Shown one piece after another: positions 454-16,520 of a stretch of DNA of 64,000 nucleotides. Origin of the DNA: Escherichia coli (lineage in GTDB: Bacteria; Pseudomonadota; Gammaproteobacteria; Enterobacterales; Enterobacteriaceae); NCBI RefSeq assembly GCF_030013595.1, contig NZ_CP122768.1; one strand, 5' to 3'. A program made the position numbers and the translations under genes. The notes under the pieces are model-generated. The model ran no database searches and had not been told where the DNA came from. It worked only from the letters and a program-made list of their open reading frames with translations. Numbering within the stretch: position 1 is the stretch's first letter; every line of letters begins with the position of its first letter.

Positions 454-528
<75 letters not shown>

Positions 529-531
529 ATA

Positions 532-607
<76 letters not shown>

Positions 608-609
608 AC

Positions 610-686
610 TGGACCGCCACCGGGGACTCGAACCTCGCACACTCAACTTAAAGGGTTGACGCTCTTTCCCGATGAGCTAGTGGCGG
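610..686 (-). tRNA. atypical tRNA-like gene, apparent anticodon UUU (Lys) or degenerate Arg-like
   Basis: acceptor CCGCCAC/GTGGCGG, T-loop TTCGAGT and 3' CCA are present, but the anticodon loop is CCTTTAA (C at position 33) and the T-stem has one A-C mismatch. Confidence 0.5.
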
Positions 687-687
687 T

Positions 688-763
688 TGGTGGCCCTTGC
701 TGGATTTGAACCAGCGACCTGGCGATTATGAGTCGCTCGCTCTCACCACTGAGCTAAAGGGCC
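688..763 (-). tRNA. tRNA-Ile2/Met, anticodon CAU (ileX/ileZ-like)
   Basis: 76-nt cloverleaf: acceptor GGCCCTT/AAGGGCC, anticodon loop CTCATAA, 3' CCA; close to E. coli ileX as recalled. Confidence 0.8.
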
Positions 764-3834: not shown

Positions 3835-3933
3835 ACAAACAATACAAACAATACAAACAATACAAACAATACAAACAATACAAACAATACAAACAATACA
3901 AACAATACAAACAATACAAACAATACAAACAAT
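3835..3933. repeat. perfect tandem repeat (ACAAACAAT) x 11
   Basis: eleven identical 9-bp units read directly in the sequence; preceded by an A/C-only tract from about 3801. Confidence 0.95.
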
Positions 3934-4010
3934 ACAGGCGCATCGATAATTAATTAACTTATCGGGTTACAAGGTAATATAACTTCAGTTAAAATTATTA
4001 ATCTCTTATT

Positions 4011-4108: not shown

Positions 4109-4264
4109 TTACTCCTCAGGTTCGTAAGCTGTGAAGACAGCGACCTCCGTCTGGCCGGTTCGGATTCGTACCTCGCAGAGGTCTTTCCTCGTTACCAGTG
4201 CCGTCACTATGACGGTTAAACAGATGACGATCAGGGCGATTAACATCGCCTTTTGCTGCTTCAT
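4109..4264 (-). CDS. hokD: Hok/Gef-family type I toxin (HokD/RelF-like), 51 aa
   Basis: hand translation gives MKQQKAMLIALIVICLTVIVTALVTRKDLCEVRIRTGQTEVAVFTAYEPEE; below the 60-aa cutoff of the ORF track. Confidence 0.85.
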   Translation of the reverse strand: MKQQKAMLIALIVICLTVIVTALVTRKDLCEVRIRTGQTEVAVFTAYEPEE

Positions 4265-4474
4265 AGCCTGCTTCTCCTTGACCTTTCGGTCCGTAAGAGG
4301 CTAATCTCTATGTGTCGCATAGATATGGCCTCAGATTAATGTTAAGCGTCTTGCAGGACGCGTAATGTTAACTGGGGCTTTTCTCTATCTGCCTTTTGGT
4401 GTTCATGCCTGAGGCAGATAGCCTCAAGCACCCGCAGCAATTCTACTTAACTCTCCTTTTCCCGCAAACCGTTT

Positions 4475-4950: not shown

Positions 4951-5483
4951 CAGTTCACCTCCTGCGGTGGTTCTGGTAGCGGCATCCAGTGAGTTGCCTG
5001 CTCAATATCATTACCCGGCTTAATCGTTGCATCCCCTCTCCGGAATGTACTTCCGGTATAGCGTGCGGAGCATATTAGCGGTTCAACCAGAGAGCTATCG
5101 AAATTCACCGAAATGATCACGTTCTGATTCTTCTCAGGCATTCGCTCACTACAGCTTATCCAGTCATTTTTAATGCCACTATCCTGACTCTGAAGCATAG
5201 TGGCGCGGTGACACCAGATAATCCAGCCAAGCGCCATATCCCATGCCATGTATTCGCTATCGCCATTTTTTGCCCTGCGACGATCTACAGATTCCCCGAA
5301 ACGCTTCTCCATAAATAATTCATAGGCTGCCCGTTCATCCGATACTGCTTCCAGCGATGCCAGTGCGATACGAAACACATCAGCAAGTAGGCTGTTTGAA
5401 GATTGGTTATCGTGCGCCGGATCGCTCAGGAAACCAGTGATGAATGATTTAATCTCCGCGTTTTCTCTGGTAATAGTGGTCAT
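4950..5483 (-). CDS. DUF551-domain phage protein
   Basis: C-terminal …ERMPEK…THWMPLPEPP motif typical of DUF551; start chosen at the ATG preceded by AAGGAG. Confidence 0.6.
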   Translation of the reverse strand: MTTITRENAEIKSFITGFLSDPAHDNQSSNSLLADVFRIALASLEAVSDERAAYELFMEKRFGESVDRRRAKNGDSEYMAWDMALGWIIWCHRATMLQSQDSGIKNDWISCSERMPEKNQNVIISVNFDSSLVEPLICSARYTGSTFRRGDATIKPGNDIEQATHWMPLPEPPQEVN

Positions 5484-5484
5484 A

Positions 5485-5703
5485 TCAGTTCTCCTTATAC
5501 GGATTAATTTTATTGTGCAGTGTGTTGAACGACGCCCATACCACGTCGTTATACAATTCAATAACGGGCTCAATTACTTTTCCGATTATCCAGGCCAGTA
5601 ATAGCGGGAATATCGGTATCATCAATACGATAAACAGAATGAGAAACAGAAATTCTGTCGCTCTACTTTTTCGCGGATATTCTTTTCTGAATAATGTAGT
5701 CAT
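5485..5703 (-). CDS. small membrane protein, 72 aa
   Basis: ORF with a long hydrophobic segment (FLFLILFIVLMIPIFPLLLAWIIG), packed between neighbouring genes. Confidence 0.45.
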   Translation of the reverse strand: MTTLFRKEYPRKSRATEFLFLILFIVLMIPIFPLLLAWIIGKVIEPVIELYNDVVWASFNTLHNKINPYKEN

Positions 5704-5830
5704 TTCTTACCGCCCTTTCGGGCGGCCTCCGGATGATTTGAGGGTGCAGGAATCCCTCCGGTTAAGGATTTAATAAAAACCACTTCTGATTTAAATTTTC
5801 AGTGTTTTGTTGTCAGGTGGTTTATCGCCT

Positions 5831-6412
5831 TTATGCTTCAGCCTTATTTCTCAGCCATACACAAACAGGGCCGTCTTCGGTGTCATGTATTGAACCAATA
5901 AACCAACCATCGCCCTCTGGTCGTTCCGGTTCCCATGCAGAAATATCAGCATCACACGCATCAAGGTCAGCACATCCTTCGTCTCTGAAGCAGAGGACGT
6001 ATTGAAGATTATTTTCCTCCATCCAGGCGTTAAACTCTTCCGTTGAAATATACTCCCGACCACCACAGAATTTTTCATATTCAGGATGCGTCCAGCAGCC
6101 ATATTCATCACGCATTACTGGTATTTCTTTAATTACGTTCATCAGTATCACTCCTAATGCTTTGTTAATTGCAGAATGGGCCATTTCGAATTCATCAGTT
6201 TTTCTGTCAGCAACACGAACCACCGCTTGCAGGGCTTCAAGTAATTCTGGTGCTGCCGCTAAAAGCTGAAAATTAGCTTTCTGCATCTGCCAGTCATTGT
6301 TGTATTTTGTCACCTTAGCAATTGCCTTATCGCGTTCACTATCCACTACCCAGCAATTAGCTGAACCGTGGAAACTTACATGCCATGGACCTGGTGTTCC
6401 TTTAAATTTCAT
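5831..6412 (-). CDS. hypothetical phage protein (Ead/Ea22-like?), start uncertain
   Basis: ORF 5831-6514; start placed at MKFKGTPGPW to limit overlap with the upstream gene; acidic Cys-containing C-terminus. Confidence 0.45.
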   Translation of the reverse strand: MKFKGTPGPWHVSFHGSANCWVVDSERDKAIAKVTKYNNDWQMQKANFQLLAAAPELLEALQAVVRVADRKTDEFEMAHSAINKALGVILMNVIKEIPVMRDEYGCWTHPEYEKFCGGREYISTEEFNAWMEENNLQYVLCFRDEGCADLDACDADISAWEPERPEGDGWFIGSIHDTEDGPVCVWLRNKAEA

Positions 6413-6683
6413 GCCATGATTTTTTGTATTGCTCACTCGCTTCCTCCCACGTTTTAATGCTTTCACCACAGAACGGGCAAAATGAAACCCGAACTGGTAA
6501 TTTAGAAAATTCACCGGATCGCAACATCACCAAATCAGGGCCGCGAGTTAAACTCTCATTCCAGATTTTGTATATCAGCAGGCCTTTTCGCGTCGTGTAT
6601 TCAGCATCATGCTCAAGGGATTTTGTCAGTGCCGTACACGGTTCTATCTGATTGCCCTTAACCTGGCATTTTGATTCACTCAC
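6402..6683 (-). CDS. hypothetical protein, 93 aa, with C-x2-C motif
   Basis: ORF in operon context; …FCPFCGESI… motif. Confidence 0.4.
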   Translation of the reverse strand: MSESKCQVKGNQIEPCTALTKSLEHDAEYTTRKGLLIYKIWNESLTRGPDLVMLRSGEFSKLPVRVSFCPFCGESIKTWEEASEQYKKSWHEI

Positions 6684-6957
6684 TGGTTGCTGTCTCCTGT
6701 CGGAACATCACGATCATCAGGCCATCTTTTGTTGCTACCCTGGCTGTTGTACCAGGCTCTATGCTGCTAAGGTCAAATGCATCACAGAACTCCTCTAACA
6801 CTTTCTGGCGTCTCTCCTGTTTGCGGCGCTTTTCCCACTGCTTCAGAAAAACAGAGGTCACCCACTTCCCCGCGCTGAACATGATGTAAAACCAACCAAG
6901 CAGAGCCAACCCCGTGTTGAGGGCTGTATCAATCGTTATTGTTGTGTCGATATTCAC
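6676..6957 (-). CDS. small membrane protein, 93 aa
   Basis: ORF with hydrophobic helix (LALLGWFYIMFSAG) and basic tail; overlaps neighbours by a few nt. Confidence 0.45.
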   Translation of the reverse strand: MNIDTTITIDTALNTGLALLGWFYIMFSAGKWVTSVFLKQWEKRRKQERRQKVLEEFCDAFDLSSIEPGTTARVATKDGLMIVMFRQETATSE

Positions 6958-7250
6958 TGTGTCTTCTCCTGGAAAATAACCGCATGCCCCAGTTTCTCCG
7001 CCAGTGCCAATTCTGCCTTAGCACCTGCTGACCGCTGCCAGCCTTTCAGCATGTAAATCGCATCCACACAACGAATCATTGCCATGCAAATATCCATGTA
7101 GTGTGGCTGTGTCAGCCCGTCTGGAAGTACTGCCGGGTTTAAGACTGTATGCCCTTCCCGTTTCAGTTCCTCTTCCGCCTTGTGGAACGCCTCACGGTTG
7201 AAATTTTTATACCCGGTCATCGGACCAGCGATATAAACCCTCACCCTCAC
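6954..7250 (-). CDS. DUF4406 protein (nucleoside 2-deoxyribosyltransferase-like fold)
   Basis: N-terminal MRVRVYIAGPMTG motif characteristic of the DUF4406/deoxyribosyltransferase-like family. Confidence 0.55.
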   Translation of the reverse strand: MRVRVYIAGPMTGYKNFNREAFHKAEEELKREGHTVLNPAVLPDGLTQPHYMDICMAMIRCVDAIYMLKGWQRSAGAKAELALAEKLGHAVIFQEKTQ

Positions 7251-7642
7251 GCCATCACCTCCTGAAAATTACCCTGATAAAACGCCAGCACTCGCTGCAT
7301 AACCTCACTCTTCCGGCACTCGCGGCAGATTATGTTCTGGCTCCTGTCGTAGCGGCGTATCTCTCCGTCTGGTAACTTTCGAATCAGCGTCTGGTCAGTT
7401 GTTTTCTCCGGCGTCTTACGCCATTCGCGATACGTCTGCTCTGACGTAAAAACACCGTATTTACCGGACATGTATAAATCGCCACAAGCCAGTACATCCA
7501 CAAGGCAGCGTCGGACCGAATGCCAGCCTGCTCCCGTCGCTCTCTCCAGTTGCGACATCGTCATGCGTCCATTTTTGCGTACCAATCCGATAATTCGTGC
7601 CTTCAGCTCTTCCCGCTGTTCGGGTGTAAAAGGTTTCGCCAT
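7247..7642 (-). CDS. hypothetical phage protein, 131 aa
   Basis: ORF directly downstream of the P-like gene, 4-nt overlap with the DUF4406 gene. Confidence 0.45.
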   Translation of the reverse strand: MAKPFTPEQREELKARIIGLVRKNGRMTMSQLERATGAGWHSVRRCLVDVLACGDLYMSGKYGVFTSEQTYREWRKTPEKTTDQTLIRKLPDGEIRRYDRSQNIICRECRKSEVMQRVLAFYQGNFQEVMA

Positions 7643-7671
7643 AAACCCTCCCGGTAAAATTACTTATCAAC

Positions 7672-8214
7672 TCAAACAAAACCTGCCGCTTTCCTGCGTT
7701 CATATTCCTGTTTCAGCAACTCAATTGGAGTTGGCCCCGACGGGCGTTCTGGTGCTGCCAGTTGCCTACGGACGGGTGGAACACTCAGTCCGTTACCAAC
7801 ATGCTTTGCCCATTTCGCTAGTTGCCGTTCTGCAAGCCGTTTTAACTCCCCTTCGGTCATCTGGCGCTCAATCCCCTTTGAACGCAGCTCGAGACAAATG
7901 TGATACAGCACAGGCTGAGACCACGGGTATTTATCGCTTCCGTCGTATCGCCAGGACTCGTTGCGCCAGCGTCGGTACTCCTCCATCACGTTATCCACCG
8001 TCAGACCAAATGGATTTGCCCCGCTCTCCGAAATCAGCGCCACAAACTCAGCCAGGTCCGGAGGCCATGTTTCACCCGCCCGGCAGCGGTCCATGCACTG
8101 GCGGCAGACCTGCCGGATTTGCTGCTCAGTCATCGCGCCAATCTGTGCAATCCAGAGCTTCGAAGGTGCGGCCCCGTTCTTCTGGGTCCAGCGGTTCGAA
8201 TAAACCTCCCCCAT
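7672..8214 (-). CDS. replication protein P-like (helicase loader), start uncertain
   Basis: C-terminal half resembles lambda P (…YPW…ELKRLAERQLAKW…); the ORF extends to 8337 but that overlaps the O-like gene. Confidence 0.6.
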   Translation of the reverse strand: MGEVYSNRWTQKNGAAPSKLWIAQIGAMTEQQIRQVCRQCMDRCRAGETWPPDLAEFVALISESGANPFGLTVDNVMEEYRRWRNESWRYDGSDKYPWSQPVLYHICLELRSKGIERQMTEGELKRLAERQLAKWAKHVGNGLSVPPVRRQLAAPERPSGPTPIELLKQEYERRKAAGFV

Positions 8215-9166
8215 GAGTTCCCACAGCTTCCAGGCCGTTTCCGTCGCTGATAAATCCGTTTTCACGTTCCCACTGCTCACGTGCTGCCCGAATTTCCTGA
8301 ACTGCCCGTGATGCGGTGCCACCTGGTGCTGCTGCATGGTTTACCCCCTTGCTGACTGGTTTAACCTGTGCCCTGACGTGATTTACGTGACGGGCGAATT
8401 TCTGCTCCCACTGAACCTGCGTGAACACTTTGCCCTCATCGCTCCAGTAATCCCGGAATGCGGCAAGTTCAGCAGGTGTAAATTCCGGCTCCGGCAAAGC
8501 CATCCCCCACAACGCAGCCCGTCGTCGAAAATCCCGTGACGGATGCCAGCTATCGGTCATCGGAAATTTTCCGATGGGTTCGCTCAGGCCATCCAGGAAT
8601 ACGGGTGGCACTGCCTGTAACGACAAAACTTCCTGCTCACTGGTCGGAGCACTCTCGCGTGCGTTATGTGTGGGGTTTAGATCTTTGGGTTCCTTTGGGT
8701 TCCGTGATCCGTTTTTGGGTGTCTTTGATGGAAAATTTGGGTGTCTTTGGTTATTTTCCATGCAGCTAAGAGTTCCGTTTTTGGGTCTGTTTTGTGCTGA
8801 AACATAACCATTTTCGGTACTGTTTTTATTAACAGTACCAATTTTACCCACCTTTAAAGACTCCCGTTTTTGGGTGTATTCAGGCTCGGCAACACTTTCT
8901 TCTACACCGATAAGTCGGTACACCACAATTTGCTTTGTTCTGCCTTTTCTCTCACCGGTATCAACAATTAACCCAATCTCCATCAGGTGTCGTAAGCTGT
9001 CCTGCACAGTCTTTTTGTTCAGTTCCGTTACTTCTGCCAGTGCAGATACAGACGGGTATGCACACAAATCGGCACCGCACATATCAGCAAGCCAGGTCAA
9101 TACTGACTTACTGGATGAACTGCCGGTTTTCACCTTTTTAGCCCATCGTAGTGCATCGATACTCAT
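8126..9166 (-). CDS. replication initiator O-like protein
   Basis: N-terminal helix-turn-helix replisome-organiser region; iteron repeats embedded mid-gene as in lambda O. Confidence 0.65.
   Translation of the reverse strand: MSIDALRWAKKVKTGSSSSKSVLTWLADMCGADLCAYPSVSALAEVTELNKKTVQDSLRHLMEIGLIVDTGERKGRTKQIVVYRLIGVEESVAEPEYTQKRESLKVGKIGTVNKNSTENGYVSAQNRPKNGTLSCMENNQRHPNFPSKTPKNGSRNPKEPKDLNPTHNARESAPTSEQEVLSLQAVPPVFLDGLSEPIGKFPMTDSWHPSRDFRRRAALWGMALPEPEFTPAELAAFRDYWSDEGKVFTQVQWEQKFARHVNHVRAQVKPVSKGVNHAAAPGGTASRAVQEIRAAREQWERENGFISDGNGLEAVGTHGGGLFEPLDPEERGRTFEALDCTDWRDD
8684..8879. repeat. iteron-type replication origin within the O-like gene
   Basis: at least four copies of CCGTTTTTGGGTGTC-like units (8709, 8736, 8775, 8863), TTTGGGTTCC direct repeats, and an AT-rich palindrome GGTACTGTTTTTATTAACAGTACC. 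Confidence 0.65.
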
Positions 9167-9689
9167 ACGAACCCCTGGCAGACATTTGTTTATCTGCAAA
9201 GTAATATTGGTATTGCTGACGATACGCGTGCTTGAAAGCAATAGCTTTTTCTATAAGCTCGTCAGTCTCACGTTCCACAACAGCTGGATCCGCAAAAAGC
9301 AGCCCGGACTCCACCACATCGCCATATTCTTTGTTTAACCCGGCGATCATGTACGTAATGCTTTTTCCGTCAGTAATTTCACAATACAACCTGAAATCGC
9401 TGATCCGGATAGCCTCCATAATTGCCGGAATCAGCGCCGTGAATTTTTCCCGCTTATCCCTGGTGTCGATAGCTTTCCAGCGTTCGAATATCTTCACCCG
9501 GTTAACGCCCAGCGCCCGTTGATCAACCGCGCCATCATCAAACGTGACGCGTTGAACATCGATGTTCGGGCGTTCTTTCAGAGCCCAGAAGGCTTCCGTG
9601 ATTAATATCGTCGCCTGCTCCTGTGTCATTCCTGGTCGGCACACCCAGGCATCCAGAGCCTCACAAACCTGTTCAGGGGTGATTTTCAT
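9138..9689 (-). CDS. early-region protein in the cII position (YdaT-like?), 183 aa
   Basis: ORF between the cro-like gene and the O-like gene; weak recalled resemblance to YdaT-family proteins. Confidence 0.4.
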   Translation of the reverse strand: MKITPEQVCEALDAWVCRPGMTQEQATILITEAFWALKERPNIDVQRVTFDDGAVDQRALGVNRVKIFERWKAIDTRDKREKFTALIPAIMEAIRISDFRLYCEITDGKSITYMIAGLNKEYGDVVESGLLFADPAVVERETDELIEKAIAFKHAYRQQYQYYFADKQMSARGSYEYRCTTMG

Positions 9690-9976: not shown

Positions 9977-10384
9977 ATGAAAAACGAAACCTTCGGTGCT
10001 CGCCTCTTACATAGGCGTAAAAAATTAAAACTGTCTCAGGCCGCATTAGGTAAGCTGGTCAAAGTGGCTCACGTAACAATTTCTCAATGGGAAAGAGATG
10101 AAACACAGCCGGCGGGGAAAAGATTATTCGCACTGAGCCAAGCGCTTCAGTGCTCACCGACTTGGCTTCTTTTTGGGGATGAAGATAAACAACCAGGCGA
10201 ACCGATCCCGGATAATCAGCCAGCCATTCTGACAGAAGATCAAAAAGAGTTACTTCAACTGTTCGACGCACTGCCTGAGTCAGAGCAAAAGGCCCTGTTG
10301 TCAGAGATGCGTGCTCGAGTTGAAAATTTCAACAAACTTTTTGAAGAACTACTCAAAGCTCGCAAAAGAAGCGCAAACAAATAA
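9977..10384 (+). CDS. dicA: DicA-like HTH (XRE family) repressor
   Basis: 135-aa protein close to DicA as recalled (…SQWER…FALS…LQCSPTW…FGDEDKQP…NFNKLFEELLKAR…). Confidence 0.8.
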   Translation: MKNETFGARLLHRRKKLKLSQAALGKLVKVAHVTISQWERDETQPAGKRLFALSQALQCSPTWLLFGDEDKQPGEPIPDNQPAILTEDQKELLQLFDALPESEQKALLSEMRARVENFNKLFEELLKARKRSANK

Positions 10385-15154: not shown

Positions 15155-15433
15155 GTGATAACCATGAGCGAACAGTACCTGATAACGCTCGACGAGTGGA
15201 AACCAAAACGGTTCAGTCTCCCAATAACAAACACCACCCTGGTGAAATACGGAAAACTAGGATACATCGTTCCAAGACCACAAAAAATTCGTGGGCGTTG
15301 GCTGATAGATCGCCGGGCAGTATTTGTTGGACCTGGTGAAACAGGAATTGCGCCGGAAATTCATACTGGCGATGATGATGCACTGAAGGAGATTTTAACT
15401 CATGTCACCGAGGCCACGAAAAAACAGCACTGA
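15155..15433 (+). CDS. xis: excisionase (Xis)
   Basis: lambda-Xis-like N-terminus (…LITLDEW…RPQKIRGRWL…), directly upstream of and overlapping int. Confidence 0.7.
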   Translation: MITMSEQYLITLDEWKPKRFSLPITNTTLVKYGKLGYIVPRPQKIRGRWLIDRRAVFVGPGETGIAPEIHTGDDDALKEILTHVTEATKKQH

Positions 15434-16520
15434 CGTAGCCGGTCTTTACGAAAAGTTTGATCGCAGAACTGGCAGGGTTTACTACCAGTATAAAAACCCT
15501 GTGACTGGAAAATTTCACGGACTCGGAACAGACAAAGGTAAGGCAGAAAAAATCGCTTCCACAGCCAATCAGCGAATAGCTGCAGCAGAGGCTGAATATT
15601 TCATGCGCAAAATTGATGAAAGTCCGTCAGCAACAAAACGTCGGGGTATCAGATTAAAGGCATGGGTTGATCGATATCTGAAAATACAGGACGCGCGACT
15701 GAAAAATGGAGATATTGCAGCTACAACTCACAAAGAAAAAGCCCGAATGGCTGCATACCTGGTTTCCCGTCTGGGAAACCACCCATTGAAAGAACTGGAA
15801 GTAAGAGACTTTGCATTAATACTGGATGAGTGGCTGGATAAAGACATGGTCAGCACAGCGAGAGTAAATCGCGGATTATGGGTTGATATTTATAAAGAAG
15901 CACAGCATGCAGGGGAAGTTCCTCCTGGATGGAATCCTCCGGAGGCTACCCGTAAACCGATCCCTAAAGTAACCAGAGCCAGGCTCACCATGGAAGACTG
16001 GCAAAAAATTTACAATGCAACGCCTGAAAAACACTTTATCCGTAACGCAATGCTTCTTGCGATTGTTACTGGTCAGCGCCGTGATGACATTTGCCACATG
16101 CGTTTTTCAGATGTGTGGAACGAACACTTGCATATCACCCAGGGAAAAACCGGAATGCGTCTGGCGTTACCGCTTACACTACGCTGTGATGCCATTGGGA
16201 TAACGTTAAAAGAAGTTATTGATGGGTGCCGAGACAGAATATTAAGTCCATATCTAATCCATAGTCGGCACCAGAAACAACCGAAGCCGATGAGTAAAGA
16301 CAACCTGAGCGACTACTTTGCCAAAGCACGGGATCTGGCTGGGATAATTCCACCAGCAGGAAAAACTCCGCCAACATTTCATGAACAACGCTCTCTATCA
16401 GAACGGCTGTACCGTGCACAGGGTATCGATACAAAAACATTACTAGGACATAAAGTCCAGGCAACCACCGATCGCTATAACGATACTCGAGGTCAGGAAT
16501 GGGTTAAGTTGGTTATTTGA
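15402..16520 (+). CDS. int: tyrosine-type site-specific integrase
   Basis: 372-aa ORF with an integrase-typical C-terminal region (…HEQRSL…LLGH…TDRYND…), next to the chromosome junction. Confidence 0.85.
   Translation: MSPRPRKNSTDVAGLYEKFDRRTGRVYYQYKNPVTGKFHGLGTDKGKAEKIASTANQRIAAAEAEYFMRKIDESPSATKRRGIRLKAWVDRYLKIQDARLKNGDIAATTHKEKARMAAYLVSRLGNHPLKELEVRDFALILDEWLDKDMVSTARVNRGLWVDIYKEAQHAGEVPPGWNPPEATRKPIPKVTRARLTMEDWQKIYNATPEKHFIRNAMLLAIVTGQRRDDICHMRFSDVWNEHLHITQGKTGMRLALPLTLRCDAIGITLKEVIDGCRDRILSPYLIHSRHQKQPKPMSKDNLSDYFAKARDLAGIIPPAGKTPPTFHEQRSLSERLYRAQGIDTKTLLGHKVQATTDRYNDTRGQEWVKLVI

Follow-up and report, generated by a model that had tools for sequence, protein, structure and literature searches.

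We examined a 64,000-nucleotide (nt) stretch of Escherichia coli DNA (assembly GCF_030013595.1, contig NZ_CP122768.1), which we call the window, and focused on a block of small genes on its minus strand at positions 5485-7642. Read along that strand, the block holds a DUF977 gene (7247..7642, 131 amino acids (aa)), a DUF4406 gene (6954..7250, 98 aa), a DUF4752 gene (6676..6957, 93 aa), a rac21-like gene for a four-cysteine protein (6402..6683, 93 aa), an open reading frame (ORF; 5831..6436, 201 aa) in which two ancestrally separate genes stand in frame, and a DUF4014 gene (5485..5703, 72 aa). The block is flanked by O-like and P-like replication genes upstream and by the late antiterminator gene Q downstream, all on the same strand. 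We read it, with a probability of roughly 0.8, as an accessory segment at the ren/nin position in a Rac-like lambdoid E. coli prophage, within its rightward early (pR-type) operon.

Each block protein has an exact match in public protein clusters of 42-1272 members, named as E. coli, and a match to a PHROG family with E values of 1e-18 to 1e-56. Shine-Dalgarno sequences are also recognisable across the block genes. Chance ORFs are ruled out because each ORF has conserved protein homologues. An earlier note on this DNA, made from the sequence alone, had described six minus-strand ORFs of 72-227 aa that overlap by 1-11 nt. All six are conserved genes, but the upper length is over-extended: 227 aa is the mechanical maximum from a GTG at 6514, whereas gene callers and RefSeq (for the homologous gene) use GTG 6436, which lies 6 nt behind a GGGAGG Shine-Dalgarno sequence and gives 201 aa. 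Overlaps do occur at four junctions, although their sizes are 4, 4, 8 and 35 nt and a gap of 127 nt then precedes the 72-aa gene; an overlap of 11 nt arises only with ATG 6412, an unsupported start.

The 201-aa ORF arose by deletion of one base, which fused a PF27050 gene to a rac22-like gene. Its N-terminal half (6143..6436, minus strand) matches phrog_1273 (7.1e-19), is a probable member of PF27050 (Phage_P22_Y8K6) and contains the motifs GTPGPW and AAAPELLEAL, and residues 10-95 of the fused ORF align with standalone homologues, about 110 aa long, for which PF27050 matches are precomputed. A precomputed PF27050 match is on record for the identical 201-aa protein as well; our direct Pfam search gave none, the copy searched presumably being an older release, and tblastn of this half against deposited phages gave 5 weak matches only. 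The C-terminal half (5831..6142, minus strand) is a rac22-like acidic protein of 103 aa (isoelectric point 4.2, six cysteines) whose gene has an ATG and a GGAG Shine-Dalgarno sequence of its own. Over residues 99-201 the ORF shares 95% identity with a standalone prophage protein of 103 aa that is very common, and no known fold was matched by this half. The annotations of E. coli A30 and CM2010 list the two as distinct genes, of 102 aa and 103 aa, with an overlap of 14 nt. DNA alignment at the fusion point gives GTGATAACTGATG in A30 and CM2010 and GTGAT-ACTGATG (GTGATACTGATG) in the window, in E. coli E2865 and at the identical locus L004; the latter three have one A fewer, and its deletion at 6145..6146 on the minus strand puts the two genes in frame. 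The exact 201-aa product is present on at least 24 contigs, indicating that the fused allele is a circulating polymorphism and not a read error in the window. Since the rac22-like gene keeps its own ATG and GGAG, its product can probably still be made separately.

Programmed frameshifting at the fusion site is ruled out, as the site has no slippery heptamer and each allele exists as a fixed sequence. When the 201-aa ORF and its half-length homologues were aligned together with MAFFT, the two families were misaligned, and this alignment was discarded. In E2865 (NZ_AP018808.1; locus L011 2844-3102), which has the same deletion, RefSeq annotates the 103-aa gene only and leaves the PF27050 half unannotated. 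The fused allele is thus under-annotated in RefSeq at least in E2865, the one fused-allele genome inspected.

The first gene of the block ties it to the lambda early operon. Its product matches Pfam DUF977 (2.4e-66) and falls in phrog_142, 'Ren-like exclusion protein' (1.5e-45), the same family that lambda Ren hits when scanned directly (1.6e-41); BLASTP between the two proteins gives 2e-7, with 29% identity over 87 aa. They have in common the C-terminal motif N-(I/L)-x-x-(R/K)-E-C-R-(K/Q)-S-x-x-M-(Q/K)-R-V-L-A-x-Y. The DUF977 start lies 29 nt past the P-like stop and is preceded by a GGGAGG Shine-Dalgarno sequence. Judged by homology and by its position directly after P, DUF977 is the lambda Ren counterpart. 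Ren is reported to let lambda escape Rex exclusion (Toothman and Herskowitz, 1980), and by analogy DUF977 would let its phage escape Rex-type exclusion. The N-terminal half of the protein is predicted to be a winged helix, and published work places DUF977 in the winged-helix fold (PMC2686095). In the lambda operon, ordered cro-cII-O-P-ren, ren is dispensable for replication phenotypes (PMC3640518). The earlier note had called the block Nin-like, which is apt for its position between the P-like gene and Q and for the Ren homologue at its head, but not for its content: a PHROG scan finds none of the NinA-NinI families in 5485-7642. Because none of the genes in this interval matches NinA-NinI, the block is not a set of nin proteins with replication or recombination roles.

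The second gene encodes the protein that starts with MRVRVYIAGPMTG. It is a DUF4406 protein (Pfam PF14359, 6.6e-38, model positions 2-91 of 91), as had been proposed, and structure prediction bears out the deoxyribosyltransferase-like fold that was proposed with it. An AlphaFold2 model built with 40 homologues (predicted local distance difference test score of 89.9) shows a four-stranded beta-alpha repeat, and its flavodoxin-like alpha/beta fold matches nucleoside 2-deoxyribosyltransferase (NDT), MilB, DNPH1 and DUF1937. On this model, DUF4406 is a minimal member of the NDT/DNPH1/MilB fold superfamily. Three residues, Y6, S74 and E80, never vary in the DUF4406 alignment, and D53 is conserved to at least 90%. 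The core triad of human DNPH1 is Y24/D80/E104, and its substrate 5'-phosphate is bound by S98 and by S128' of the other subunit (PMC10603095). Pairwise alignment equates Y6 with Y24 and D53 with D80 in all three parameter sets, and S74/E80 with S98/E104 in one of the three. The serine-to-glutamate spacing is alike in the two proteins, with S74 six residues before E80 and S98 six residues before the nucleophile E104. The NDT-like phage enzyme DmtZ has been shown to hydrolyse deoxyadenosine monophosphate (PMC12884076), so a phage deoxynucleoside monophosphate N-glycosidase has a precedent. With a candidate Tyr-Asp-Glu triad and phosphate serine retained, DUF4406 is most likely a (deoxy)nucleoside 5'-monophosphate N-glycosidase. 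It would cleave the N-glycosidic bond of such a nucleotide, and its target would thus be the nucleotide pool while phage DNA is replicated.

A small nucleotide-binding fold in a phage early operon could also serve a different end, that of a sponge or signal-cleaving protein directed against immune second messengers (TIR/Thoeris or CBASS-type) in place of an enzyme of nucleotide metabolism. DUF4406 is very small, like many sponges, and occurs in the early operons of many temperate phages. However, its TIR resemblance is to be expected of any member of the flavodoxin-like fold, the NDT/DNPH1 catalytic set explains its strictly conserved Tyr, Asp, Ser and Glu better than a binding-only role does, and the literature searched contains no link of this kind. 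We consider the sponge quite improbable and prefer the N-glycosidase. In a bolder version of the latter, DUF4406 would be an unrecognised minimal (deoxy)nucleotide N-glycosidase of 98 residues that serves as an early weapon of temperate phages, destroying a nucleotide-derived immune signal or its precursor or purging a pool nucleotide, and that forms an anti-exclusion pair with DUF977 in Escherichia and Salmonella prophages; this is speculative and, in our estimate, unlikely.

DUF4406 is found in 527 deposited phage genomes, among them phages of Arthrobacter, Vibrio, Gordonia, Mycobacterium and Pseudomonas, covering hosts from Proteobacteria and Actinobacteria. Apparent fusions of DUF4406 to dCMP (deoxycytidine monophosphate) deaminase and to MazG were ruled out as mis-annotated labels on a 122-aa coding sequence and a truncated 42-aa coding sequence, and an argument from domain fusion was dropped accordingly. 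The PHROG scan also gave tentative matches to longer families labelled 'MazG-like' and 'hydrolase'. PDB sequence searches with the DUF4406 protein (ORF5) and with ORF2 and ORF6 gave no meaningful match; a TolR match at 8.7e-4 in these searches was dismissed as a coiled/helical stretch. The gene itself opens with GTGAGGGTGAGG (7238-7250), a direct 6-nt duplication that yields MRVRV. Most DUF4406 homologues start M-K/R-I/V-Y, which makes the second GTG (7244) an alternative start whose use would remove the 4-nt overlap with DUF977.

The DUF4752, four-cysteine, PF27050 and rac22-like proteins are conserved products with no assignable activity. DUF4752 (Pfam 7.1e-40; phrog_667 4.8e-41) begins at a GTG that overlaps the DUF4406 stop by 4 nt, and its product has a weakly hydrophobic N-terminal helix (Kyte-Doolittle maximum 1.27) followed by a KRRKQERRQK stretch. 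The four-cysteine gene overlaps DUF4752 by 8 nt, and its product matches phrog_4030 (5.3e-37) and no Pfam family. This family is narrow, with 68 clusters among 5.8 billion, in Escherichia, Salmonella and Citrobacter. Its conserved cysteines, C6, C17, C69 and C72, suggest that the protein is probably zinc-binding, and the C-x2-C motif that had been pointed out in the block is indeed there, as a conserved CPFCG. The last gene encodes a DUF4014 protein (Pfam 2.2e-24; phrog_1832 9.7e-44) with a basic N-terminus followed by FLFLILFIVLMIPIFPLLLAWIIG and a 19-residue Kyte-Doolittle maximum of 3.09, and is predicted to be a small single-pass inner-membrane protein. Two small membrane proteins had been proposed for the block; DUF4014 is the only clear one, DUF4752 being marginal. 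In PHROG, phrog_1832 is described as 'released from the phage upon host infection', which is odd for a 72-aa membrane protein of an early operon, and at least one RefSeq phage record (PA28) has taken over this label.

The DUF4014 gene is set apart from the rest of the block by an intergenic spacer of 127 nt (5704..5830, minus strand), which looks like a module boundary. It contains an imperfect hairpin followed by UUUUUAUU, a U-run, and its RNA is predicted to fold at -33.6 kcal/mol (z -2.15). Compared by length, a matching gap follows the rac22-like gene in A30, CREC-2 and CM2010, ahead of downstream genes that differ. Within the spacer, a strong hairpin of 7 G+C base pairs with a GAAA loop (about 5709-5726) separates a GGAGG from the DUF4014 ATG about 25 nt downstream (5704-5745). 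If this hairpin folds, the Shine-Dalgarno sequence would come to lie at a normal distance from the DUF4014 start, a possible split ribosome-binding site.

A consensus scan of the minus strand across 5485-7642 found no sigma-70-like promoter, and the corresponding scan for terminators found no convincing one, only a weak terminator-like site inside the rac22-like gene. The likeliest course is that the block genes would be transcribed together with the replication genes from a pR-equivalent promoter after induction or infection. Most of them would be translated by coupling, through GTG starts that overlap the preceding stop. These features bear on the idea that the block is instead lysogen-benefit cargo (morons), that is, superinfection-exclusion or defence genes such as DUF4014 expressed from the prophage. 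Small prophage membrane proteins often mediate exclusion, the spacer before DUF4014 could hold a promoter, and PHROG places phrog_142 in its category 'moron, auxiliary metabolic gene and host takeover'. Yet the spacer holds hairpins instead, neither it nor the block contains a sigma-70-like promoter on the minus strand, and the genes sit inside a repressor-controlled early operon, directly past the replication genes. PADLOC defence profiles searched against the six block proteins at E values up to 0.1 gave no match. We regard moron cargo as very improbable, and favour the early-operon accessory segment.

Parts of the region are common. Of 5426 complete E. coli genomes searched by megablast, 1830 contain part of 5400-7700, and one only has coverage of at least 80%; an identical architecture is present in other assemblies, for example at L004. 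We counted neighbours in 80 IMG/VR loci for each of three anchors (DUF4406, DUF4752 and DUF977), onto which the window proteins were mapped; the counts are lower bounds, since diverged homologues fall under the thresholds. Around DUF4406, DUF977 stands immediately upstream in 68 of the 80 loci and DUF4752 immediately downstream in 11. Seen from DUF4752, the immediate upstream neighbour is DUF4406 in 6 loci and DUF977 in 14, the downstream side being uninformative. DUF977 has this P type immediately upstream in 20 of its loci; its immediate downstream neighbour is DUF4406 in 17 and the four-cysteine gene in 7. DUF4406 genes that have diverged further (60-65% identity) occupy other settings altogether: in Enterobacter the leftward early region, adjoining Dam/xis/int; in Edwardsiella a site between ead-type genes and int; and in Rouxiella a site past DnaB and ahead of NinB. 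Salmonella keeps the trio DUF977-DUF4406-DUF4752 at about 81% identity. Every junction between the genes varies from one prophage to another. The G+C content at third codon positions (GC3) steps down at about 6680 (6676-6690), from 0.57-0.585 in DUF977, DUF4406 and DUF4752 to 0.35-0.47 in the four-cysteine gene, both fused halves and DUF4014; at this step, modules that differ in origin meet at a mosaic boundary, and the trio on its upstream side may be one inherited module.

These data also address whether the overlapping genes, or at least the trio, form one multi-component system for host takeover or anti-defence. The 4-nt overlaps and similar GC3 across the trio, the DUF977-DUF4406 adjacency in close relatives and the retention of all three genes in Salmonella speak for a system; in Edwardsiella a single gene separates DUF4406 from DUF4752, and lambda Ren, as stated above, is reported to counter Rex exclusion. 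Against this, the adjacency is scarce when counted from DUF4752 or DUF977, and the high count around DUF4406 can be explained by shared descent, the copies being 92% identical or more. DUF4406 also occurs without either partner in Enterobacter, in Rouxiella and in many phages of Actinobacteria, Vibrio and Pseudomonas, and the defence profiles matched none of the six proteins. An NCBIfam scan of the same six proteins gave no match either. In the literature searched, no function is described for DUF4406, DUF4752, DUF4014 or DUF977, and nothing functional connects a deoxyribosyltransferase or the nin region with anti-defence. A host-takeover or anti-defence role, which the earlier note had put forward, has no direct support and is a general expectation for such a genome region, not a finding. 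We judge a single system to be unlikely. As every junction is exchangeable between prophages, the block is better described as a mosaic of independent cassettes, made up of seven small genes that were ancestrally separate and can each be exchanged singly, with two of them fused here.

Several points weigh against our interpretation of the block and its genes. The analysis shows the gene identities and families, the fusion, the mosaicism and the DUF4406 fold; co-transcription, translational coupling and all biochemical functions are matters that we infer. The Ren analogy draws on the 29% identity over 87 residues and on synteny, and we know of no established mechanism for Ren itself. The frequent adjacency of DUF977 and DUF4406 in close relatives, kept in Salmonella together with DUF4752, makes a functional link within the trio conceivable. 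For DUF4406, hhalign of its alignment against verified human DNPH1 gave a probability of 0.4, and a PDB search with the DUF4406 profile returned no NDT match; because profile comparison fails, the residue equivalences with DNPH1 rest on motif spacing and on an alignment that depends on its parameters. The chain stops after strand 4, at residue 98, and so has no counterpart of the C-terminal third found in NDT/DNPH1, which contains the helix supplying the second phosphate-binding serine across the dimer (S128' in DNPH1). Against target chains of 135-165 aa, the target-normalised template modelling scores come to about 0.5. DUF4406 might bind without cleaving, or need a partner.

The neighbouring genes have a lambdoid order. 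Upstream of the block, on the minus strand, lie a cro-like gene (9900-9673), a YdaT-family gene at the cII position (9689-9138), an O-like initiator gene (9166-8126) and a lambda-P-like helicase loader gene (7672..8133; phrog_109 1.1e-62), the 153-aa call of which matches PF06992 at the identical locus L004. A helix-turn-helix repressor gene (9977-10384) is divergent, and the integrase is presumably encoded by an ORF of 372 aa at 15402-16520. The O-like initiator (within 7672-9241) has a DnaT-like C-terminal region, which scores 92.6 bits with the NCBIfam DnaT model, below the cut-off of 201 bits; a Pfam DnaT match is on record for it at L004. The mechanical ORF of the P-like gene has 221 aa from 8337 and overlaps the O-like gene by about 200 nt, and the product exists in databases in versions of 153, 180 and 221 aa. 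Downstream of the block, on the same strand as it, a DUF551 gene (5483-4950) and a gene for a 131-aa protein (4950-4555) come before the hok toxin gene (4109-4264; ORF translation, PF01848) and the sok antisense RNA region (4262-4433; Rfam sok 108.3 bits). The block thus lies between the P-like gene and hok, as had been noted, with these two genes also preceding hok. After hok/sok come a DUF968/HNH gene, RusA (2025-1660) and Q (1669-974). Just downstream of Q stand four tandem transfer RNA genes (454-763, minus strand) for Gly-TCC, Thr-TGT, Lys-TTT and Met-CAT. The AT-rich spacer (GC 0.34) between hok/sok and a Rem-like gene contains a perfect tandem repeat at 3835-3936, with a 9-bp unit ACAAACAAT (plus strand) in 11.3 copies at 100% matches, which yields 'YCLYCLYCL' pseudo-ORFs in the ORF list.

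The block is an ordinary, catalogued prophage accessory block: identical proteins are already named in NCBI/RefSeq, in families that are functionally uncharacterised. It carries little weight as a discovery, with its genes, families and arrangement in public databases and parts of it in roughly one in three complete E. coli genomes. Its value is corrective, in that a frameshift fusion inflates one ORF and in that exchangeable cassettes take the place of a system. DUF4406, from a family widespread in phages, is the one block gene with a testable biochemical prediction. Set beside DNPH1/Rcl, MilB/BlsM, the NDTs and phage DmtZ, it has 98 aa where these have 135-165, and four strands; relative to the NDT superfamily it is without the C-terminal extension and hence without the trans-acting phosphate and base contacts. 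Its fold is also like that of DUF1937 (PDB 1t1j, a structural-genomics protein), which likewise has no assigned function, so that this match adds no mechanism.

Among known phage regions, the ren-nin segment of lambda (NC_001416 40280-43886) is alike in its place between P and Q in the rightward early operon, in being a run of short, overlapping and dispensable ORFs, and in having a Ren-family gene first after P. The lambda order cro-cII-O-P-ren-nin-Q corresponds here to cro-like, YdaT-family, O-like, P-like and DUF977 genes, followed further on by hok, DUF968, RusA and Q. In contrast to lambda, no NinA-NinI homologue is present in 5485-7642, only the first block gene has a lambda counterpart, and that Ren homologue is 35 residues longer than lambda Ren. 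The junction-resolvase role falls to RusA and DUF968/HNH, downstream of the block, in place of NinG/Rap and NinB of lambda. Closer likenesses are found in Rac-type prophages such as Rac-SA53 (KU052037) and that of E. coli CREC-2, where lygF (DUF977), rac19 (DUF4406), rac21 (the four-cysteine gene) and rac22, to use their Rac-SA53 names, are about 93-96% identical (nucleotide or protein) to their counterparts here; for Rac-SA53 the figure is about 94%. Rac-SA53 differs in having ead/eae in place of the DUF4752 gene of the window and in being without the PF27050 gene and DUF4014; the CREC-2 prophage of E. coli is likewise without the PF27050 gene. Both use a ydaU/ydaV replication module where the window has the O-like and P-like genes, and both share with the window the gene order and the continuation into hok, DUF968, RusA and Q.

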